A DNA stretch of 64,000 nucleotides from Octopus vulgaris (Eukaryota), in contig OX597815.1 of NCBI GenBank assembly GCA_951406725.2, forward strand, positions 70,618,001 through 70,682,000, read 5' to 3'. The notes beneath the pieces are model-generated. The model ran no database searches, was not told the origin of the DNA, and saw nothing but the letters and a program-made list of their open reading frames with translations. Positions 11,251 to 63,560 of the stretch are shown here, piece by piece (the stretch's first letter is position 1; every line of letters begins with the position of its first letter). A program made the position numbers and the translations under genes.

Positions 11251-12125
11251 TGTCGAGTGTTTTGAATCTTATATTTTATAAAATAAAATTGTTATTTAAA
11301 ATATGCAAAGATTTTTCTTGGTACATTTGTAGATAGATTTATTAATATTGATTTCAAAGTTTGGCAGAATGTCAGCAATTTAGTGGGAGGAGTTAAGTCG
11401 ATTACATCGACTGGTACTTATTTGCCCGGCGTGCTAACGATTCTGCATAACACCGACTTGTTAGATTTGTAGCGAGCTCTAGTGAGCTTCCTCTCTTATA
11501 TTAAGTACATACGAACGTATCAGGTAACAGCTAGCCTTTGGAGCTGTTTTGGACCCCGTTGTGTCTACCACTCCGATTGGTTGATATTGGCGTAATTTGT
11601 CTCATACTCTATCGCATGCCAGTATGTAACCCAACCAATCACAGCCTGCAAATAAGTCATATGAGACAGTCTGTTTCAAACAAGTATTTGAGCCTACCCC
11701 TCAGCTATGAAAGCTCACCTCTTCCTATGCTCGACGTCAGTTGGTTCTATACTTTTTAAGGTCTAACCATTGACCACCTTGCAGCGACCTCCATCTTCGT
11801 CGCCACACCAGATGTCTCTCACCAATGTCGTCAACATCTACACAGCACCAACACACTGCTCTGTTTCCTACATCGCTGTTCGTGAGCTTCTCACCAGGGT
11901 TCACAGCTTACATACAACCCATACAGATGCCTATAGATATATATGAAAGTCCATCTACAATTCTATTCATCATTCCATTGTGTATGTGCGTGTGACCACA
12001 ATAAACGCGTTAAAGTCATTTCCTTGTGTTTTATATATTCTTCACCGGATACCTATCTCCACAATAACATTAGATGACACCACATTCCATAACATCTAAA
12101 GATTTATTAATATTACAGTGCCAAA

Positions 12126-12340
12126 ATGTGGCGAGTTGGCAGAATCGTTGGCACGCCGGGCAAAATACTTAGTGGTATTTCGTCCGTCTTTACGTTCTTA
12201 GTTAAAATTCCGCCGAGGTTGACTTTGCCTTTCATTCTTTCAGATTCGATAAAATAATTACCAGTTGAGCACTGGGGTCGATGTAATCGTCTTAACCCCA
12301 TCCCCCCTAAATTGCTGGCCTTGTGCTAAAATTTGAAACC
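12126..12340 (+). mobile_element. Full-length tRNA-derived SINE (Nin/Deu-like core) with 17-bp TSD
   Basis: GGCGAGTTGGCAGAATCG head and GACTTTGCCTTTCAT...CGATAAAAT...ACCAG core. TSD AATATTACA(G/A)TGCCAAA at 12109-12125 and 12341-12357. Confidence 0.88.
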
Positions 12341-13268
12341 AATATTACAATGCCAAAGGGATTTTAGAATCGCTTTGTAAATTTCCATAGAACTTAACTC
12401 GCTTTTATGAAAACTGCCATATCCAAGAAGAAAAGAACTTTATTAGAGAAGAAAGAAAAAAGACCTTAATATTTATTACAAAAGACTTGCGAACAATTCT
12501 GATCTGTCGCTAATACCTCTGGCTGTTGAAGCATAAGATGTATGTGAAACGTATGTATTTTTGCATTTTATTCTAGATACAAGTTATTCTTAAAGACCGT
12601 ATGAGCTAATAATGTGTATACATGCTGACTTCTTCGGCTGGATTTGCTGCAACGCAATAACGTGTTGAAATTTCACGATCTATTATTATTTGAGCTCTTA
12701 ATTACTGTGGCAGTATATTTTTATGTGTTTTTTAAACCAAATTTTTACAAACTATTTTCATAACGTTTCTACTTCGAGTTCAACTGTTAGGAACAAATTA
12801 TTTCATGTTCTCTCATTGTTTCTAACTTCTTATGACCTCCTCACTCTCTCTCTCTCGTTATATATATATATATATATATATAAAGGGGCAAATCGAATTT
12901 CATTGTCTATATTTAGACATGCTTCAAACACTCAGACTTGCAGCAAAATATTTCATATTTGGAAGAACTTTCGAAAGCTACTCACTTTTACTGTCAATCC
13001 AAGTCTTCCTCTCTTTCTCTCTTTATCTCTCGCGCGTGCGTACACCGACCCATTAATACATCGGCAGTAATATACATTTACTTTAGGAATTGAACGCTTT
13101 CACCAATATTGTTTCTTGGGTATCTGTCAAGCGATATGAAAAGAAGAGAAAAACAAGTGAGGTTTGAAAAGGAAACCGGTGAAATGTTAGTATAAAAGTC
13201 TTTTCATTGAATACTCTTTGCTTCTTTCTTGGTATTATTCTTTCAAACGAGGAATACATACATACATG

Positions 13269-20187: not shown

Positions 20188-20358
20188 TAGCTGAGTTAGA
20201 GGTTAAAATAACAATCAAAGGGATAGAAGTATCCATTACACTACTGGTATATTACCTATGTTTAACCATGGGCATACATATGCAAGCATATTATACTCAT
20301 AAACTATAGGTAAAGACAAGGATAAACATGAGTTTATCAAGAATCAAAAATTAAAGAA

Positions 20359-21084: not shown

Positions 21085-22791
21085 TCAAGAGAAGTCTGCC
21101 TTTTTCCTGCCTTTCAAAATGTTACGAAAATACGCCAGAGTAGTGTCATTAAATAAAGCAGCTGTACGACCTGTAGATACTTTTTCAGGATGATGTTTTT
21201 CTACAAATTCAGAAAGATATTGCCACTTTGCCAACACTGCCTTTATGTCACTCGTAGAGTTAACAATCTCTGCTACACTGTCCTCCTCCGGAGAACCAAT
21301 CTCTTCCACCGCATCCAAATGCTACTGTCCCTGAAGCTGCAGGAGTTCATCTGTCGTCAGCTTCTCTGAGAGTTCCTCGACAAAATCGTTAATGTCCCCA
21401 TCATCAACCTCGAGGCCCATGGACTTGCCAAGAGACACCATCTCCTCAACAACAGGGGTCCCAAACTCAAACCCCTCGAAGTCGCTTTCTGATACGCAGT
21501 CAGACCACAGTTTCCTCCATGCAAAATTCAGCGTTCTCCTCGTTAAACCTTGCCAGGCCATTCAATGATTTTTCAGGCAGTTTACAATGTTGTAGTGCCC
21601 CTTCCAAAACTCAGGAAGGGTTAGATTTGTATTTTCGGTGACTTCAACGCACCGACGAAACAGGTATCTGGAGTACAATTTCTTATAATTAGAAATCACC
21701 TGTCGGTCCAGGGACGGTAAGACAGGGGTGGTGTTGCGTGAAAGGTACAAAACTTTTATGAATTTAAATTCGTCCAGGATATTATCTTCGAAGATAGGGG
21801 GTGAGCAGGAGCATTGTCGAGGATGAAGAGAGCCTTGACAGGAAGATCGTTCTCCAGAAGGTACTTTTTCACTGCTGTCCCGAAGATAAAGTTGACCCAC
21901 TCGGTAAAGAATTGCATGGTGATCCAGGCTTTAACGTTTGCCCTCCACATGATCTGCAGTTTCTCTTTCAGGATTTTGTGTAACTTGAACGCTCATGAGT
22001 TTTCGGAATGGTAGACAAGGAGCGACTTAATCTTCAAGTCTCCACTCTCATTGGCACAAAGAGCGAGAGTTAGCCTATCTTTCACAGGCTTGTGGCCTGG
22101 CACTTTCTTCTTCTCTGCAGTTATGTAGGTTCTTCTGGGCATTTTCTCCAAAAAAAAGGTAAGTTTCATCACAGTTGGATACCCGTTGTGCGATGTACTC
22201 CTCGGCTGCGATGAGCTGACGGAATTCGCGCACGAAATCCTCAGCTGCCTTTGTGTCAGAACTTGCTGCTTCTCCATATCTGACGACACCATGAACAGTC
22301 CTCTTCTTGAAATTATCGAACCAGCCGCGACTAGACTTAAATGTGTCTGCTGATGTCTCCTCTGTTGTTGATGTTCCAGGGTTCTGCTTCAGGAGATCCC
22401 CATACAGCGCTCGTATGATTTGTATTTTCGATGACTTCAACGCACCGACGAAACAAATGATTTCTTTCTCGCAAATGATTGTCTCCGTAATCGTATCCTC
22501 TTCGAATTGCTTCTCGTTCATCCACAGCAGTAATTTTTCCATCTCTTCTTGGACAGATGCGCGTTGCTTGGAGAGCCTGGAGACACCACTTGCTGTTGTA
22601 AAGGTATTGATCTCGTCCTTTTTCTTCAGGTTAGTGCAGATTGTCGACATGCTTCGTTCATATTGACATACTATGTTCACAAAACACACTCCTCTCTCAT
22701 GTTTATCAATGATTTCCTTCTTCAATTCTATCATTATCAGCTTTTTCTTCTTCCTAGAACAATCCTTTGTACTTACCTTCTTAGGACCCAT
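21085..22791 (-). pseudogene. Tigger (TIGD1-like) transposase, frameshifted
   Basis: MGPKK...IELKKEIIDKHERG, FKSSRGWFDNFKKR, GEAASSD, NCDET, KDRLTLALCAN, KAWIT, LDNAPAHP, AWRKLW. Confidence 0.92.
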
Positions 22792-23100
22792 GGCTAATAC
22801 AACCAATTATTATAAAATAATATGGCTAACACAACTAATTATTATAAAATAACATCTAATTATCATAAAATAAGGCGGCAAGCTGGCAGAATCGTTAGCA
22901 CGCCGGGCGAAATGCGTAGCCGTATTTCGTCTGTCGCACATGTGTTCGTGAAGTAAGAATTGCTGTTTCGTGGTGTTAATATTGTTAACAACTGTTGTTT
23001 CTTGTTAAACTGTTGAATAACTTAACTGTTGGAGTTTTCAATTGAAAACACTTAGTGCTTGTGGTAGCACGCGTTGTTCATTCCCCCTTTGGGGGGAAGA

Positions 23101-24627
23101 ATGTCGTCTAGCATGGAGCCTACCGTTGGAGCAGAAATACTTGTTTCTCTTGTTGAGAGGAGGAAATACATGTCCGGCGAGGAGCCAACTACAGACAAGG
23201 AAATAGGGGTTTCCCCCGCTACAAGAAGGAATAGCAGAGAGGATAATATATTTGATATTTTTGGAGATGTGTCTGAGAGCTCGTTAGAACTTTCACCAGA
23301 AGAGTTTCCGACTTTGCCAGAGAACAAAGGCATTGTGTCGAAGAGAATAATTGATGTGCCTAGCATCCAGATAGAACCAAAAAATGGAAAAAAAAGTTTT
23401 GCGTTGGCTGCTGGGGGTGGAACCCAGATACTGTCGACGAATAAAAGCGAAATTATGAAATACAGCAAAATGATGGAAATAACTGACAACAGTGTGAAAA
23501 TTGAACCTCCGCAAAAGTTATTACAGGAAGAAAAGCAAAAAACAATAATTTTCAAAACATATTGTCTACAAAATAGAAAAATTGAAAGAATGTCAGAAGA
23601 GAAAATAGAAAAGTGCTTAAAGCCAATATTGGGCGATGTAGTATTTCTGAGAAGAGGAAAAAAATTCGGAACGGTGGAAGTAAGGTTCACCAATAAAGAA
23701 ATAGCACACAAGAACTCAGTTGAAACGTTGAAAACGAACGACGTGGAGTTAATACCCTATTATATGGGGATGAGGACGTCGCGAATAAAAATTACAAGGG
23801 TCCCGCCAGAGGTCGAACCTATGTGGTTGTTGGCGGCAGTCCTAATCAAAGAGGTAGAAAAAATTACTCTCCTCCAGGCTACCGCTACGGAAAACCCACG
23901 CTGGGATGGTCAAACAATTAATCTTCTCATTCAAGCGGACCCTAAAATAATTCAAACAATTCCTGAGACAATTGAGGTAGGGGAGGAGAACCTCGTGGTG
24001 TTTGTTGAGGGCCGAAAACCTCGATGTTTTTTATGTGGTCAATTAGGCCACATTCGAAGGAACTGCAAGGAAAATGAAGAAGAGGAGGAAGAGGAGAAAA
24101 AAGACAAAGAGGAAGAAGATAAAGAAGAAACAGATGAGAAAAAAACAACAAACAAAAGAAAAATACAACCAGCAACCCAGCCGAGAGCGGCGACTACTAC
24201 AGAACAACGACCAAAAAAGACTGCCAGAAGAGAAAAAGAAGAAAAAGGCATAATAGCCGTATACACTAAAGATACTGAGCTCATGAGAGACATTCAACTC
24301 ATAAAGACTGTAAAAAAAATTGATAACCTTTCAGAGGAATTTATCAATTACGACATATATGAAGTCTCAAATAAGACTTATAGAATTCTACAAAATAAGT
24401 ACAGAAAGACTGTATCTTCATTGAGATTAGATTTTAACAAGTCGATATTTCATGGATTACCAGCTCCGATCCCGCGAGAAAAGGAAAAGGTGGAGATTCC
24501 CCCTCCACCTGATAATTCTGTGTCGGTGGTGAGACGGGATTTTGACAAATCTATTTCCCAAGACCGTCCACCTCCGACCCTGGATAAAAAAAAAGGTGGA
24601 GGGTCCCCCTCCACCGGACAATCCTAA
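23101..24627 (+). CDS. LINE ORF1 nucleic-acid-binding protein with CCHC zinc knuckle
   Basis: Uninterrupted ORF (first ATG at 23101) with CFLCGQLGHIRRNC followed by an acidic/basic low-complexity tract. Lies directly upstream of ORF2. Confidence 0.88.
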   Translation: MSSSMEPTVGAEILVSLVERRKYMSGEEPTTDKEIGVSPATRRNSREDNIFDIFGDVSESSLELSPEEFPTLPENKGIVSKRIIDVPSIQIEPKNGKKSFALAAGGGTQILSTNKSEIMKYSKMMEITDNSVKIEPPQKLLQEEKQKTIIFKTYCLQNRKIERMSEEKIEKCLKPILGDVVFLRRGKKFGTVEVRFTNKEIAHKNSVETLKTNDVELIPYYMGMRTSRIKITRVPPEVEPMWLLAAVLIKEVEKITLLQATATENPRWDGQTINLLIQADPKIIQTIPETIEVGEENLVVFVEGRKPRCFLCGQLGHIRRNCKENEEEEEEEKKDKEEEDKEETDEKKTTNKRKIQPATQPRAATTTEQRPKKTARREKEEKGIIAVYTKDTELMRDIQLIKTVKKIDNLSEEFINYDIYEVSNKTYRILQNKYRKTVSSLRLDFNKSIFHGLPAPIPREKEKVEIPPPPDNSVSVVRRDFDKSISQDRPPPTLDKKKGGGSPSTGQS

Positions 24628-24642
24628 TTAAACAGGTAAGTG

Positions 24643-27600
24643 ATGGCTATTCACATTGGTTGTTTAAATGTTCATGGCCTGTTGTCAAGCTGGAAGCAAG
24701 GACGCTTTCTGAATGACATCAGGTCGAGAAATTTGGATGTAATTGTTGCAACGGAAACCCGGGTGAAGGGGCCAAGAGATCTGCTCCCCCTCCTGAACGG
24801 CTACGAGAAATACGTTTCTCCGAGTCGGGCGGGAGGTGGGGGTGGGGTGTTGGTCCTACTAAAAAGAAACCGGGTAGCCGAGAAAAAGTTGTTTTTTCTG
24901 ACCCAGAAGGCAGGCTGGTCGTTCTCGACTTGACATTCAGTTGTGGCAAGACAATCAGGCTGGTCGCTATTTATGCACCAAACATTATTGGCCCGCAAAC
25001 TGAATATTTTCGTGGCCTAGGAAAGTTCCTAGCCACGTCGCATTCACTAGTAGTGTTAGGAGACTCTAATACAATATGTGCAGCACACACAGATTGTGTT
25101 GGCTCAAACTCGAACATGAACAGAAAATGTAACACAGGCTTTCGGGATCTGCTAAGTCAATTTCAGCTAGCAGATCCATATAGGTTGGAGCACCCGAACA
25201 CTCCACAGTGGACGTGGTCAAATAGTGACGGGTCTACCAGAACATATCTAGATAGGATTTTAATTAGAGAAAAAGATAAGTCCATAGTTGAGTGTCCACA
25301 GTTTTTTCTAGTCAGCTACAGTGACCACAAGATGGTTACCTGTAAACTGACGGTAGATAAGTTGCATAGACAGGGATCTGGCTACTGGAAACTCAATACG
25401 TCCCTTTTGGCGATTGAGGAGTACAGAAAGCGGATCAAGATGTTAATACAGAGGGCATTAACAGGTACCATCATTAATAACAAATGGTGGTACGCCCTAA
25501 AAAGAGCCATCAAATATGAGTCTATTAGGTTTAGCATAAGTTTAGCTAAGAAGGGACGTAAAATAGGAGATGGTCTAGTTAAGGAACTAGAAGAAGCCTG
25601 GAGGACTGGTAATACAGACCAAGCGAGGGTGAAAAGACTGGAGTTAAACCAGCATCTTGAAGCCCACCACATGGGAAGTATTACCAGAGCTAAGTTACGT
25701 GCAATGGGAAGTGAAGGAATCAAAGCCGCTGGATGGGCCCGAGTGGTGGAAGCTCGGCAAGGAAATAGTTCCTCTATTCGGTCTTTGACGAATCAAAATG
25801 GTGTCTTGATAAACGAACCCGAGAAAATGTGTGAGGTCTTTCGGGAGTACTTCGCCCAGCTGTTCGGGGGTGACGGCGGTCCTGGTGGTGGGAGAGCCCT
25901 CGAGGACTTTCTTACCGGGCTGCCGTGCCTCTCGGGGTCGGATGCGGAGTCTTGCGAAGGGCCAATCACACTTGAGGAGGTGATGGAGGCTTTGGCCGAT
26001 TGTAAAGCGGGTAAGTCACCGGGACTTGATGGTCTTCCGTACGAGCTGTATAAATGTATGCCAGACTTGTTCGGGCAACTACTGACTGACGTGTACGCGA
26101 ACTGGAAACAGAATGGGTTTATCCCCAGATCTGTGCGCCGGGGAGTAGTGACGTTGGTCAGAAAGGACCCGGACAAGGGGGACGTTCTAGAGAATTTCAG
26201 GCCCATCACTCTGTTAAACGCAGAAGTGAAGATTTTGGCCAAGGTTCTAGCAAAAAGGTTGGCGCGTGTCGCGAATGGTATAGTCGGGGAGGCACAGACA
26301 TGTGCCATCCCAGGCAGAACCATTCAGGATACCCTCCATCTTATTCGCTATACCATAGAGAGGTTTGGTAATAAATCTGGCAAAGGTGGGGCATTGGTGC
26401 ATTTGGACCAGTCTAAAGCTTTTGATAGGGTTGAACATCGATACCTAGCGACTGTGCTTGCGCGGTTTGGCCTGGGCCTTGGCTTCCTCAGGTGGTTTAT
26501 CGCTTTGTACCACAACATTGACTCGATAGTTCGGGTGAACGGTTTCCTTTCGAAGCCGTTCTGCATCAGACGCTCGGTTCGTCAAGGATGTCCGCTTTCA
26601 CCACTTTTGTATGTGATGGCTCTCGAGCCATTACTGCAAAGGTTGAGTGGCATCCCGAGAGAACCAGGACTAGAGGAGTTTGTTACGGCTTTCGCGGATG
26701 ATATCACTATCAGTGTAACCACAGTGGCACGCCTACGTGAAGTAGGTAAGACTATTGAGGCTTACGAGGAGGTAGCAGGAGCAAAGATTAACCGGGAAAA
26801 GTCGGTCGGCTTGCAGCTCGGCACCTGGGTTGGCAAGTCGATGCCTTCAGACAGTGTTGTTAGGCGCTGGACGGAGGGACCGGTTAAGTTGCTGGGAGTC
26901 TGGTTTGGACCAGGCCTCCAGATAGAGAAGAACTGGACGGAGGTATTGAGCAGGGTGACTGCAGTAGTCAAGACCTGGTCTTGGCGGTGGCTATCCCTGA
27001 AAGGGAGGGCGGAAGTGGCCAATGTGTTTATCGCATCGGTCATTACCTACCGCCTGACTGTCGTGCCCTGTCCGGATTCGTGGTTGATCAGGTTGGAGAG
27101 ACAGCTCTTTCGCTTTTGTGGAAGGGCAGGTCGCCACTTGTGAAACGCTCTGTCTGCTGTCAAAAGCCTTTAAATGGAGGTTTAGGGATGCCTTGGTTAA
27201 TGATGCGCAGACATGCGTTGAGGTTGAGGCACCTCTGGATTCTCCTGGATAGTGAACGGGTGTGGTCTCCGCTGGCCAGACAAATGTTCCCTGAGTTCAA
27301 GAGTTTTTGCGAACAGGAAGCCTGGTGTTCTCGTAGACCGAGGTCGAGTGAGTGGCATAAAGAGTGCCGTAAGGCCCTCTTGCTGTTCCGGCGCTCGGGC
27401 AACGCCAGCGGTGGGGGTTCCACACGGATTTTATATAGTGGGTTGGTAGAGTCTGAATGCGACGATGGCCTGGGGTCGACTCTAGGTCTCGGATTTATTC
27501 AACTGGACAGCTTGTTTCATCGTACATTCGGGTTGAGAACGTTGGACAACTTCCAAAAGTCCTTAACCTGGCAATGCTACAGAGGTGCCTTGCCCGTTTG

Positions 27601-28041
27601 GGATAAGCTCGCAAGACATGGTAAACGTCAGTCGCCGACCTGTCCAAGATGCGGGGGGACAGGGAAACCGTCCCTCACGCTATTGTTCAGTGTCCGGAGA
27701 TAACTGAAATGTGGGCTTATGCTGAACATCTGTTGTCCGGCGAAGGAAGAGTACGACTGTCGACTGAGTCAATTATAAAAATTGACCCACCGGGAGTTCT
27801 AACGAACGAAGGTAAGAATTGTTTTCTCACGGTTGTAGCAATAGCAAAAGAGGCTGTATGGAATACTAGGATAAAAGGAATTAAGACAGGCAACTTTATC
27901 TCTGGTGACAATTTACGATCCTTTTTTTCTTTTCATTTGAAAAGGAAACTGTGGCTGGAGAAGAGGTGTCTGTCAGAGTGTACGTTCCAAAAGAGATGGA
28001 AGTATGTTGCACGAGTGTTGTGCGTGCAAGGAACCGTGTGA
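24643..28041 (+). CDS. LINE ORF2 (APE endonuclease, RT, Cys/His C-terminus) with three frameshifts
   Basis: LNVHGL, TET, IYAPN, LDRI, SDH; KSPGLDG, FRPITLLN, LDQSKAFD, QGCPLSP, FADD; CPRC...ETVPHAIVQC. Frameshifts near 24890, 27115 and 27655. Confidence 0.92.
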
Positions 28042-28925
28042 ATAGACGAGGAAAAAAAAAGGAAAAATAAAAAGGTATCAGCGGTAGATCGGGGCTTGTG
28101 GGATCGGAGCGTAACTTGATCATCGCTTCATTTGTATTGTTTTTGTACTGCGTATTCCATTCGATTTTTATGTATTGTATTTTATTTTTGATGTCACATT
28201 TATGTAAAATCATATCGATTCACTGATCCCATCAGTTGTACTGTCCATATCTATGTTTGGCCCCCGGTGGGCAATAAAGAAATTCGTATTTCGTTCTGAG
28301 TGCAAATTCCGCCGAGGTCGACTTTGCCTTTCATCCTTTCGGGTCGATAAATTAAATACCAGTTACGTACTGGGTCGATGTAATCGACTTAATCCCTTTG
28401 TCTGTCCTTGTTTGTCCTCTCTGTGTTTAGCCCCTTGTGGGTAGTAAAGAAATAGGTATTTCGTCTGCCGTTACGTTCTGAGTTGAAATTCCGCCGAGGT
28501 CGACTTTGCCTTTCATCCTTTCCGGGTCGATAAATAAAATACCAGTTACGCACTGGGTGTAATCGACTTAATCCCTTCGTCTGTCCTTGTTTGTCCCCTC
28601 TATGTTTAGCCCCTTCTGGGCAATAAAGAAATATATCATAAAATAACAGCAAAAAACGCACAGAGACTAAAAAGAACACTAAGAAAAACACAAAGGGATG
28701 CTGTCCCAACGAGATGAATACGTGACCTGAGCGAGTGGAGGGTGCGCTTGTAGAGAGAGAGAGAGAGAGCGTGTGCGCGCTCAGCACCGACAAGCGGTCG
28801 CTTGTATGAAACTAGCTCGTACTGCAGATTTCCACTCTTACCTCAAGACAAAAATTCGCACGAGCCTCGGCTCGTACAGCAAATAACTCGTACAATGGTG
28901 CCCTCGTAGTGCGAGATTCTACTGA

Positions 28926-41271: not shown

Positions 41272-41395
41272 GGGGAGGGGCCGGTTGATTAGATCGACTC
41301 CAGTAAACAACTGGTACTTAATTTATTGACCCCGAAAGGACGAAAGGTAAAGTCGATCTCGGCAGAATTTGAACTCAGAACGTAAAGACAGACGG
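41272..41395 (-). mobile_element. SINE fragment (Nin/Deu-like core)
   Basis: CTGGTACTTAATTTATTGACCCCGAAAGGACGAAAGG...GAATTTGAACTCAGAACG is the reverse complement of the SINE body at about 28295-28375. Confidence 0.8.
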
Positions 41396-44069: not shown

Positions 44070-44850
44070 TTTTTTTTCTCCACATTGTATGTTTTGAAAA
44101 TGATCGTTCATTCCAGAACGTCTGTTATAATGCCTTGTGCAGGGGCCACTTTAATTTCAGTTCCCTCTCTTGACAATAATTCTCTGTGCTCTCTTAAATT
44201 TTCGGCATTAATTTTCCTGGACCTGCTCCCGGCGGCTGCCGCGAAGCTCATCTCTTTTGTGCCACTTTGTGCTTCGCCAGTTGCAAGACTGGACACCTCC
44301 ATGTTCCTCCTCACGTTCAACTTTGATTTTTCCTCTTTTCTAGGTGAGTCTTTACTTGTACTAGGCTTTGGGGATTCTTTCGTTTGGCATTTTCTTGGTG
44401 ATTCTTGGTTTGGAGATTCACTCTCCGAAGACAGCATTTCTGATTCCATTTCAAAAATGGCACCACAGAAAATTCACGCAGCAAAAAATGTTTTGAACAA
44501 CAATTTGTTTTTTCCTCTTTTCTAGGTGAGTCTTTACTTGTACTAGGCTTTGGGGATTCTTTCGTTTGGCATTTTCTTGGTGATTCTTGGTTTGGAGATT
44601 CACTCTCCGAAGACAGCATTTCTGATTCCATTTCAAAAATGGCACCACAGAAAATTCACGCAGCAAAAAATGTTTTGAACAACAATTCCCCCACACGCGG
44701 GGGAATTAACAGCAATTTGCTTTACAAAAAAGCAATTAAGTTTTTGTTTTTTTTTCAAACAAATATCAATAAGTTTAACAACAGCAACAATTCTTCACCT
44801 TCAATAGCACGACCAATAACACAACTAAACAGCACCAACCAAATGAATGT
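44070..44850 (-). mobile_element. 5' UTR and truncated ORF1 of an L1/Tx1-like element, with a 182-bp tandem duplication
   Basis: SFAAAAG...IKVAP...TIIFKTY aligns with SFALAAG...VKIEP...TIIFKTY of ORF1 at 23101. 44327-44505 is repeated at 44509-44687. Confidence 0.75.
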
Positions 44851-44863
44851 TCGAAGAAATTCC

Positions 44864-46587
44864 TCTTTTTATTGCCCACTAGGGGTCAACGAAGAGGGGC
44901 CACATACAGGACATATAACATATGAAGATGAATGATATGGGTTTGTACAAATGAAGATGAGACGGTCACTCCGGCCCCACTCCGGGGTGGTTACGTTTTC
45001 TCAATTAATTCAGAATGTTTCTATAATTTTTCTTTTTTTTCTTCCTTTTAAAACGTTCATTGTTCATTCAGTTTTCGGTTTTTCCTAAAAGTTAATTCTC
45101 AATAATTTTTTCTACTTACCATTTCATGTCTTTCTTTATCTCGTCATATTCTACCACTGGGGTGTGGGGGTTCATTTCTAACCTCCAGCCCCAGTAGATT
45201 CACATCTGATGGAAATGCTTCTTTTAGTGTTTTATATCTTTCTTCATTTATCAAAATACATCTCATGTCTTTATCATAACCTTCTGGTAATTTTACTTTT
45301 GTAATACCTTTCATTTTTGTAATTTTTCTTTCAATTTTTTGATTTGTGTAATATGTTACTAAGTATATTCTGTTTCTATATATGTTCTCACCCTGTTGTG
45401 CATTTTGCATGTCTTTGTATTTTTGTGCGTATGTACGTCTGTGTGTCTGTACGTTTGTGTTTTTGCTTTGTGATTCCGTTCTGCTTGTGATGTTTTTTTT
45501 CCCTTTTTTTGGTGAACCTATGGGTCTGTTGCTTCTGCTTGTTGTTGTTGCTTGTCTTAATGGGTATGCTTCTTCCTGTGTCTTATGTTTCTTTTGCTGT
45601 AGTTCCTCCTTGGGCGGTGTATTCCTCCTTTCTCTCTTTCTTGTTCTTACGTCTGTAAACTTTGTGTCCTGTTTTTCGTCTCGGGTCTTTTGCTCTAATT
45701 CCATTGCGCATTCTTGTGCTTCCATCTCTGGGACCTCCTTCACTTATTGAGGACACCTTTTTTTATGTGTCCCCTCTCCCCACAAAAATAGTAGGTAGGG
45801 AGCCTTCCATCCAATATTACTTCCAATTTTACCCCATTTAATAGTTCTATTGTCTCCAGTATTCCAGCATATTCTGTTTGGTTGACTCGAAAAAACCTCT
45901 CCAGCCCGTAACCCCATCATTTTATTTGTTGGGTCCGGGTTATCTGGAGAATGGTAATGCTCTAATCTCCTTCGTCTCCCACGTCAAGGATCGCCGCTAT
46001 CAGCCACATGGGTTCCATTTCAGGCGGAATCCTGCCTACCCTAACTCTGGCAATGCGCTTACCCAGGTATGTAGGCAGGAGGGTCCACTTGTCCGAATGT
46101 AACGACACAGCGGAGTACTCGCTTGCCTCCTTTTTGGAGGCGAAAGTGACCACCACTGTGCCTTACCTTCTACCTCTTGTGTAAAAGGTAATAACGTCTT
46201 TAATCTCTTGTAGGCACTTTTCTATCTCTTCCTGTATTGCCATTTCTATTTTTCTCTTGCTTCTCGAGAACATTCTGTAAATAATCTCTTTCTTTTCCAT
46301 TTCCTTCAATTCGTCTTCTGGTGGGGTCAACTTTATGTTAGACCCCTCTCTCAGTATCCTTTCTAGGTATGTTTTTATGAGCTCGTCTTTGAAATCTACT
46401 TCATATTACTTCAGCAAACTTGGGTCCACAGTTTTCTGTCTTCCCGTTACTGAATCGTAACTCTTCGACTCCATTTGAGATACCTTTCCATGTAAAAACC
46501 AATTACAGACACAAGCCAATCACTACGGATGACGTCACACTGGTTAAATTATCTTCTTAACATTACTAATAAAGTTACTACGATTGT
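44864..46587 (-). mobile_element. ORF1-only (non-autonomous) L1/Tx1-like element
   Basis: Decayed ORF1 at about 45144-46490 (EEIEKCL, RIPPEMEPMWLIAAIL) is followed within about 280 bp by the tail CCCCTAGTGGGCAATAAAAAGA. There is no room for ORF2. Confidence 0.8.
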
Positions 46588-48684: not shown

Positions 48685-48731
48685 AAGCTTACATATGGGC
48701 CGCTGAATTGGTATCTCTATGTTGCTTTGAG

Positions 48732-48907
48732 AAGTGCTTAGCGATATTTCGTCTGTCTTTTACGTACTGAGTTCAAATTCCGCCGAGGTCGACTTTTCCT
48801 TTCATCCTTTCGAGGTCAATAAATTAAGTACCAGTTGCGTACTGAGATCGATCTAATCGACTGCCCCTCTCCCCAAATTTCGGACCTTGTGCCTAGAGTA
48901 GAAAATA
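48732..48907 (+). mobile_element. 5'-truncated SINE (Nin/Deu-like core)
   Basis: GTTCAAATTCCGCCGAGGTCGAC...CCTTTCATCC...AAGTACCAG...CCTTGTGCC. Confidence 0.85.
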
Positions 48908-58828: not shown

Positions 58829-59107
58829 TGTGGGATGACGTCAGCAGCCGGGTGCGTTGACCGGAAGCTGGGGCAACCGGAAGGGGTCAGCCGTCAGGCG
58901 TGCGCAGGGAGCGGGAATTGCGCCCTTTCCAACGTGGGTCTTGCAGGTGACAAGACGTGTGAGGACGTCGCTAAGGGTTTGGGCTAGCAACTGCTATCGT
59001 TAGTGTTCGGGTCGGGGCTGTGAGGAAGGACTAGTCATCACTGGAGGGTCTCCGTCACTAAGAAGAGAAGGTAGGTGCCTCTATATTCAAATCGCGCACA
59101 CACTACA
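58829..59107 (+). repeat. 5' LTR (279 bp)
   Basis: Direct repeat of 62700-62978; five substitutions counted by eye. Confidence 0.97.
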
Positions 59108-59119
59108 AGCTATTTCGGC
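59108..59119 (+). promoter_or_regulatory. Non-canonical primer-binding site complementary to tRNA-Phe nt 1-12
   Basis: AGCTATTTCGGC abuts the 5' LTR. Its reverse complement GCCGAAATAGCT is the 5' end of animal cytosolic tRNA-Phe(GAA). Confidence 0.8.
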
Positions 59120-62699: not shown

Positions 62700-62978
62700 T
62701 GTGGGATGACGTCAGCAGCCGGGTGCGTTGACCGGAAACTGGGGCAACCGGAAGGGGTCAGCCGTCAGGCGTGCACAGGGAGCGGGAATTGCGCCCTTTC
62801 CAACGTGGGTCGTGCAGGTGACAAGACGTGTGAGGACGTCGCTAAGGGTTTGGGCTAGCAGCTGCTATCGTTAGTGTTCGGGTCGGGGCTATGAGGAAGG
62901 ACTAGTCATCACTGGAGGGTCTCCGTCACTAAGAAGAGAAGGTAGGTGCCTCTATATTCAAATCGCGCACACACTACA
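62700..62978 (+). repeat. 3' LTR (279 bp)
   Basis: Direct repeat of 58829-59107, preceded by a weak purine-rich tract AAGATCAGGGTGGCG. Confidence 0.97.
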
Positions 62979-63560
62979 AGTGCCTCATTGTAAATGGCAT
63001 TATTGAATGTGACAATTTCCGTTGAGTTTTGCCTTTGAATCCTTCCTAGGATGTTCTCTGCCATGCTGGTTTTGTTGGTCGCCCAAAGCTTGAGAGGTTC
63101 ACCCAAACCGCATGTCATCATGATAGAAAATAGCTGGTACAGTTGACTTGGTACTCTGCTGACTGTTGCCTCCTCCAGTGTCTGATTCCAGTGAGCATTG
63201 GCCTCCAGTAATCCATGTTTGGCGCAGGTTTCTCTGTAGGTCGTGCAAACTTCCTCATTGTGTCTTCGAAAGTCTGTGAATGATGTAGGACCTCTGGCAG
63301 TGTGCAACAGTAGACGCTGAAAGAAGCACTCCTACTGATTAGAATGCACAGTAGTGTACACTCGTCCGATGGCCTCACTTCTGAAGACAGCATCTTCTTC
63401 CCAGCCAACAACGTGAGCCCCTTGATTGTGTCTGTTCTATCTATTGTATGCTCAGGTATAGTACACGGAAACTTCAACATACAACAGTGTTCAGGCGAAC
63501 ATATCACACTCGCTTAATTTGAAGAAAGCTGTCAAAGTGGTTTCTGATGTGACACACTTG
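62979..63560 (-). pseudogene. Helitron Rep-to-helicase linker region, decayed
   Basis: TTLTAFF, LLLHTARGPTSFTDFR, TYRETCAKHGLLE...HWNQTLEEA. Reading continues in frame across the LTR insertion (YNEAL|LDLYI*VQGMG...FGLPQP). Confidence 0.9.

Follow-up and report, generated by a model that had tools for sequence, protein, structure and literature searches.

A LINE in the genome of Octopus vulgaris inserts at one base of pre-existing SINEs, at the junction between SINE head and body, and generates a 15-bp target duplication there. We consider it probable that a site-specific lineage of L1/Tx1 type targets this junction, and that type-I copies of the SINE were also made by an older phase of the lineage or by an unsampled close sister sharing its target. 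The element was followed from a 64,000-bp window (the whole stretch of DNA analysed here, C2:70618001-70682000) through the genome, which was searched as 2.8 Gb on 227 contigs.

A full-length LINE within a SINE array

All parts of the insertion lie on the forward strand. The host SINE follows the left copy of a 13-bp outer target duplication (TATCATAAAATAA, 22861-22873), and the identical right copy (28634-28646) stands behind the last SINE unit, enclosing the entire SINE array together with the LINE. The SINE head (22874-22920) is C-type (..GCGTAGC|C). It contains a motif at 22884-22894 that is A-box-like by the box consensus, as well as the second insertion site of the system (~22887/22888). 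Next comes the left 15-bp target duplication of the LINE (CGTATTTCGTCTGTC, 22921-22935; site 1), its last bases being the LINE-type T variant. The LINE itself (22936-28284, 5.35 kb) is full-length and belongs to a young subfamily with C-type junctions. An open ORF1 of 508 aa with a CCHC zinc knuckle (23101-24627) is followed by a frameshifted ORF2 (24643-28041) with predicted APE endonuclease, reverse transcriptase and zf-RVT domains. The last 35 nt of the 3' UTR (28042-28284), and weakly the last 85, are homologous to the type-I SINE tail. The insertion splits the tRNA-type SINE between its promoter boxes, as judged from box-like motifs.

Behind the LINE, SINE body 1 (28285-28454; type-I tail, TAGT variant) starts with a remnant of the right duplication copy (CGTATTTCGT, 28285-28294). 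Family-wide the duplication measures 15 bp; a 12-bp deletion in body 1, after CGTATTT, leaves just 10 bp of it recognisable at this locus. Body 2 (28455-28633; type-I tail, CAAT variant) is headless, with the junction tail-A|GGTATTTCG, and restarts at GTATTTCGTCTG (28456). An earlier note, made from the letters of the window, had described a LINE in the SINE head with a duplication on both sides and a second SINE unit restarting directly after a tail; both features are where it placed them. The two bodies are ~7% different, yet have some rare variants in common, and an old local duplication is a possible origin.

Several other repeats occur in the window. Decayed pogo/Tigger-like transposase pieces (21993-22806, reverse strand) lie just upstream of the host SINE; their HTH_Tnp_Tc5 and DDE_1 matches are weak and below the cut-off. 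A relic of a related ORF1, 37% identical, is found at 45755-46342 on the reverse strand. Four copies carry the same SINE head/body with other tails (~12130-12350 and 48730-48900 on the forward strand, 41280-41394 and 11390-11446 on the reverse). One SINE body with at least three tail types implies several partner LINEs. A second dispersed repeat family of ~200-300 bp is present at 20342, 32688, 47818 and 2286. Two direct repeats of 281 bp (58829-59109 and 62700-62980; 98% identical, 3.9 kb apart) are possibly the ends of a mobile element, and a 182-bp tandem duplication, 99% identical, occupies 44322-44685.

The LINE is specific for one site in the SINE

The exact 25-nt LINE tail pattern matched the genome 75 times, and the flanks of all 75 were retrieved. 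SINE body follows at the same base in 69 cases, one of which is merely the 25-nt tail in a chimera. Two more have the same site followed by the 5' end of a sister LINE, three are off-target and one is a SINE bearing the LINE tail. The best 30 of 40 scored LINE 3'-UTR matches (295 candidates), a set that takes in the window copy itself and one duplicated pair, are all followed by SINE body at that base. Likewise, the best 30 of 40 scored 5' matches (64 candidates) are all preceded by a SINE head and the 15-mer. An arbitrarily chosen 200 kb of the genome contains 29 such sites, or ~7 × 10−5 per base and strand. With 71/75 tails at the site, the targeting is therefore not due to chance, and the site specificity for the SINE that the earlier note had proposed holds against random flanks. 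Even the off-target flanks resemble the site (GATATT, GGTATT, CTGTAT).

The SINEs that carry the LINE are older than the LINE. Without CpG sites, and with a few partial or duplicated loci excluded per segment, the flanking SINE bodies diverge from their majority sequence by 4.3% and the heads by 3.9%, compared to 0.2-0.7% for LINE segments. SINE halves at ~4% around a LINE at <1% indicate targeted insertion into older SINEs and no composite element. Outer duplications at LINE-bearing SINEs are locus-specific and were exact in 7/23 pairs.

Among 5'-truncated LINE copies, seven retain the SINE head, cut at positions 32-54, while ~17 others have no SINE head adjoining the 5' end, likely through deletion or nested insertion. 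No outer duplication was found around these headless copies, in a weak test given that type-II tail ends are badly located. 3' transduction of SINE body by truncated LINEs was set aside for want of an outer duplication, by the same weak test. LINE and SINE sequences were also present in public contigs of runs labelled organisms A, B and D. In the contigs of all four runs searched, no locus-specific joint of an empty allele was seen, the search being swamped by SINE copies.

Some loci are more complex. At L090 and L093 (L211, L212) a LINE tail runs into the site-1 sequence, behind which another, related LINE begins with its 5' end, so that insertions are stacked at one site. L093, L102, L118 and L070 are SINE-LINE chimeras, in which a SINE head and 35-58 nt of body are joined to a truncated LINE, or a SINE has the exact LINE tail; these are possible template switches. 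L004 and L006 (C3, ~153.11-153.12 Mb) are two near-identical LINE-in-SINE units 6.45 kb apart and probably reflect a local duplication.

The LINE lineage switched its target base

When LINE copies are sorted by a diagnostic tail variant, the junction is C-type (tail|CGTATT) in 47/48 young copies and G-type in 19/21 old ones. A tree of 53 copies with more than 700 aligned bases separates the 13 G-junction copies from the rest by a branch with 99/98 support. Their tips measure 2.5-5.6% (one 9.4%), compared to less than 1.5% for the youngest C-junction copies. The junction type of the LINE lineage thus changed a single time, from G to C. Each of the five truncated young copies that are informative lies in a C-type head (p=0.008). 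Of 36,812 intact targets the first 100 were counted by eye, and 38 of them have C before GTATT. The notion that C-type SINEs are simply younger SINEs was ruled out (5.1% vs 4.5% diverged).

The 5' junction carries a further signature. The left 15-mer ends in TGTC in 20/30 LINE copies, while the right 15-mer ends in TGCC in 22/30. The TGTC variant is found at only 2/32 free C-type targets, compared to 20/30 LINE 5' junctions (p=6 × 10−7). At paired loci, variants of the right 15-mer are mostly missing from the left, with one shared (L007/L054). From this we infer that the 5' end of the LINE RNA is target-like and anneals at this point, making part of the 5' junction. The last 27 nt before the LINE show low variation, which fits either an RNA-made junction or selection of intact targets. 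At L094 a C-junction lies within a G-type tandem junction, and so the junction base can sometimes be derived from the RNA.

The SINE inserts at related sites and forms arrays

The SINE is short, dispersed and high-copy, and it has target duplications. Its head shows box-like motifs by the consensus; ARAGORN found no tRNA in the window copy, and Rfam gave no tRNA or ribozyme match for copy L150. It has no TTTT terminator. Exact type-I SINE tails number 81,605 in the genome. Slightly shorter tails followed by NNGTATT number 37,413, a count that takes in some unique-DNA flanks. About 45% of SINE tails abut site 1, and of the first 30 tails inspected by eye, 14 abut a body there and two abut the second site. 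The second site, in the A-box region of the SINE head, takes 1,707 tails, mostly CAAT-type, and is used by one sister LINE, L106. Tandem SINE junctions therefore fall at a fixed base and not at variable positions. To this extent the SINE does supply landing sites, as the earlier note had claimed, but about half of the SINE copies sit outside SINEs.

Copies outside SINEs reveal a similar preference. SINE loci ending in unique DNA had an outer duplication in 18/38 cases versus 3/1406 mismatched control pairs, and these duplications are 13-20 bp long. With three microsatellite cases excluded, the upstream copy begins with GGT in 9/15 loci and with GTATT in 2/15, where 2 of the 15 loci had been selected by the GTATT pattern. 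Where a duplication directly adjoins the tail, the base before it is a pyrimidine in 11/11 cases. Lone SINEs occupy degenerate versions of site 1, and these starts suggest that the enzyme that moves the SINE has a preference for Y|GGTAT, a motif offered by the G-type head.

Array structure was examined in 233 deduplicated SINE loci, partly picked by tail pattern and partly bystanders plus 200 kb of arbitrary DNA. Headless junctions lead from type I to type I in 69 cases and from type I to type II in 17, with none from type II to anything. Divergence is 6.1% for type-II bodies within arrays, 7.1% for lone type-II bodies and 3.7% for internal type-I bodies; type-II bodies are also more diverged than their type-I array neighbours (paired p=0.04, n=19). 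The order of I before II and the greater age of type-II bodies indicate that type-I copies entered older hosts. In arrays of at least three bodies, adjacent units differ by 3.0% on average and 13/53 pairs are identical, compared to 7.8% between loci. Long arrays therefore grew by local duplication. The idea that arrays arise by insertion is thus supported for type-I copies ahead of type-II bodies, but does not extend to arrays of at least three bodies. Two-unit type-I arrays are a mixture, with units 1-11% apart (mean 6.1%, n=16). No age gradient was found between the first and last units of type-I-only arrays (p=0.74, n=28).

C precedes GTATT in just 381/37,413 SINE junctions (1%). Since the young LINE makes C-junctions, its present subfamily did not build the arrays, which fit an older, G-targeting phase of the LINE lineage.

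The LINE and the SINE share a tail

In the window, the LINE tail is an 88% match to the SINE tail over 34 bp, with a weaker match over 85 bp. Both contain a CCCC-loop-GGG hairpin and end with AATAAAGAAAT; the target motif and the duplication length are also common to the two elements. The near equality of the tails reported in the earlier note is upheld by this match, except that the CAAT tail it quoted is a minority SINE tail, enriched at the second head site. The SINE and the window LINE differ at CCCCTTGTGGG versus CCCCCGGTGGG, in a terminal A versus T, and in the majority TAGT versus CAAT.

Older LINE copies are closer to the SINE. Two of them carry its TTAG variant with G-type flanks, and the tips of the G-junction copies overlap the SINE divergence of 3.7-4.9%. 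These older copies have the same target, duplication length and activity period as the SINE, unlike the young C-junction subfamily. In addition, one SINE (L070) has the exact LINE tail.

Three sister LINEs, L034, L129 and L106, have tail segments closer to the SINE. The L034 family was rejected as a partner, as it ends differently and 0/12 of its flanks are in the SINE; the L129-type tail has just three matches. The TTCGCCCC tail pattern (256 matches) failed as a diagnostic, as it includes SINE variants. The L034 family (1245 candidates) is itself site-specific for other repeats, with 7/12 flanks beginning with one motif and 3/12 with another. The LINE family comprises some hundreds of copies (295 candidates), compared to more than 81,000 SINEs. 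The best partner candidate found is the G phase of the LINE lineage, with a real chance that an unsampled sister is the partner instead, and mobilisation of the SINE would be the work of this lineage.

Classification of the LINE

The ORF2 of the window copy has single-base deletions near 24892, 27114 and 27653 relative to L108, a natural copy with an open ORF2 of 1133 aa and predicted APE, RT and zf-RVT domains. The L108 N-terminus matches Pfam Exo_endo_phos (E 2 × 10−10) and L1-EN structures, and the APE catalytic motifs look intact in an alignment to L1-EN. RVT_1 (E 2 × 10−28) and a C-terminal zf-RVT (E 8 × 10−8) follow. Among solved structures, human L1 ORF2p is the closest match (E 5 × 10−62, versus 1 × 10−20 for R2). 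On these predicted domains, an APE endonuclease, an L1-type RT and a zf-RVT, the LINE belongs to the L1/Tx1 group.

A CCHC zinc knuckle in ORF1 marks Tx1 as opposed to mammalian L1, and the zf-CCHC match of ORF1 scores above the curated cut-off. Of the named ORF2 relatives, the nearest is an Argonauta protein (62% over part), and one protein match bears the automatic name "Transposon TX1". A tree of 42 RT regions groups L108 with the Argonauta protein and an unnamed one; since it contains no curated Tx1 or L1 references, it does not separate Tx1 from other L1-group lineages. As a published criterion, a target preference is called when more than 20% of flanks lie in one repeat (PMC4494074); here 69/75 lie in the SINE and 71/75 at the site. 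Domain layout and targeting make the LINE a likely member of the Tx1 clade. Endonuclease differences exist between old and young copies, and the old ones are too decayed for a specificity residue to be assigned.

A proposed mechanism and its alternatives

In the mechanism that we propose, the APE domain would nick Y|GGTAT in the older phase or C|CGTAT in the young phase, with a second nick 15 bp farther on. ORF2 would bind the hairpin of the shared 3' tail and prime reverse transcription at the nick. The cDNA end could then anneal to the upstream target, the RNA 5' end carrying target sequence, and annealing by LINE cDNA would overwrite part of the left duplication. As the head of the SINE RNA equals that of the host, an incoming SINE would replace the head without doubling it, giving head-body-body. 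Unequal exchange or slippage between two bodies may lengthen some arrays. A LINE insertion would part the SINE promoter boxes, whereas a SINE insertion would keep head and body intact and add another site.

The earlier note had gone further and proposed a closed loop with arrays. Carried further here, the loop would have one Tx1-type lineage amplify the dominant SINE of the genome, in which alone the lineage would regularly land and in which the SINE itself would land too; SINE-in-SINE insertions would add sites, sisters would split the two head sites, and the LINE would later have shifted by one base to an unused SINE subfamily. The shared tail, target and duplication length speak for the loop, but the young subfamily, with its C-junctions against the 1% of C among SINE junctions, did not build the arrays. 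We hold this full version tentatively, at slightly under even.

Two SINE halves frame every full-length LINE copy, and they might be taken for the LINE's own ends, with the SINE as an internal deletion product of a composite element. RIME/ingi-like bipartite elements provide the model: their short-element halves are the LINE termini and diverge with the LINE. The ~17 truncated copies without a head and the few target bases that the LINE RNA seems to carry at its 5' end could be read in this way. The divergence of the SINE halves is, however, six to fifteen times that of the LINE between them, and the halves come from different SINE subfamilies. Truncated copies keep partial heads, there is a 15-bp inner duplication, and the headless truncated copies have no detected outer duplication (in the weak test above). 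The composite reading is largely refuted by the divergence contrast and has hardly any probability left. The tandem bodies, for their part, could be dimeric master SINEs copied whole, combined with DNA-level duplication via GGTATT microhomology and involving no repeated SINE-into-SINE targeting. Outer duplications do enclose whole arrays, Pol III could read through arrays that have no TTTT terminator, long arrays are homogeneous, and G-type internal junctions stand behind C-type heads. Local duplication offers no way of combining bodies with two different tail types, however, and these follow a strict order of I before II. Type-II bodies in arrays are diverged like lone ones, above their type-I neighbours, and lone SINEs choose the same motif elsewhere. 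We judge dimeric masters improbable.

A stronger competitor, though still rather unlikely, is that a different, unsampled Tx1-type family amplified and stacked the SINE, while for the LINE described here the SINE is no more than a safe harbour, and the tails are alike through the common ancestry of sister LINEs. The tail differences, the SINE-like tail segments of sister families, the large copy-number gap and the C-type base at merely 1% of SINE junctions would all be explained, as would the dominance of CAAT-tailed SINEs at the second site, which sister L106 uses. Conversely, older LINE copies have G-junctions (19/21), the age of the SINE and in some cases its TTAG variant, and the best-matching sister ends differently and targets other repeats. 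Even if a different family were responsible, the loop would persist at the level of the clade.

Comparison with known systems

In R1 and R2, RNA carrying target sequence shapes the 5' junction by read-through or homology-assisted joining. Their targets are host rRNA genes and not a mobile partner, unlike that of the octopus LINE. Known target-specific LINEs land in host RNA genes, microsatellites and unrelated transposons. The following comparisons refer to the accessible text of the cited papers. The point about co-transcription behind such 5' junctions is also made in PMC4494074. Published Tx1 targets include Tx1D, U2, microsatellites, and Mariner-N4 with SINEU (PMC4494074, PMC1950540). The closest parallel is found in crocodilians, where Tx1-Mar LINEs and SINEU target Mariner-N4_AMi (Kojima 2015, PMC4494074). 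In both cases a Tx1-type LINE and an inferred partner SINE share target sites inside a mobile element, with two preferred positions used by different LINE families, less strict SINEs and tandem insertions, and the partnership is argued from common target and age (PMC4494074). The crocodilian target is a third element (PMC4494074). In the octopus it is the partner SINE, whose tail is also that of the LINE, and a single sequence is both cargo and landing site. Xenopus Tx1L in Tx1D is likewise an APE-type LINE with a highly specific endonuclease and a transposon as safe harbour, but Tx1D is a DNA transposon independent of Tx1L, without feedback (PMC4494074, PMC1950540).

Frequent tandem units, up to half of copies, are also described for Dip/B2 multimers (PMC8466645), bivalve SINE arrays (PMC11481361) and squamate SINE-derived satellites (PMC10702118). 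As in the octopus, longer arrays are more uniform, and unequal recombination is proposed for their growth (PMC8466645, PMC11481361, PMC10702118). Those units are full-length and head-to-tail, or internal fragments, and the papers describe no demonstrated site-specific LINE (PMC8466645, PMC11481361, PMC10702118). The octopus units, by contrast, are headless and start at the exact base used by a LINE.

SINEs with L1-clade tails are described as few (PMC3747384). Octopus repeat papers count L1-Tx1 elements and SINEs (PMC13282606, PMC8967140), and in one survey 893 SINE families with recent activity are left unclassified (PMC13282606, Table 1). The word "target" is absent from the accessible text of that survey (PMC13282606), and that of PMC4758252 and PMC5786205 contains nothing on LINE targeting of a SINE. 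Searches of the accessible literature found no LINE that targets its own partner SINE. The families themselves may already be described in Repbase.

If a LINE multiplies the very sequence that shelters it, the persistence of a small LINE family beside a very high-copy SINE would be explained. The same loop would account for the many headless SINE multimers, which are confusing for repeat annotation. Because the target switch involves one base and a single ladder-like lineage, it makes a change in APE specificity directly testable. If the loop is true, shifts in endonuclease specificity would be preserved as a dated natural series, with targets recorded by the tens of thousands.
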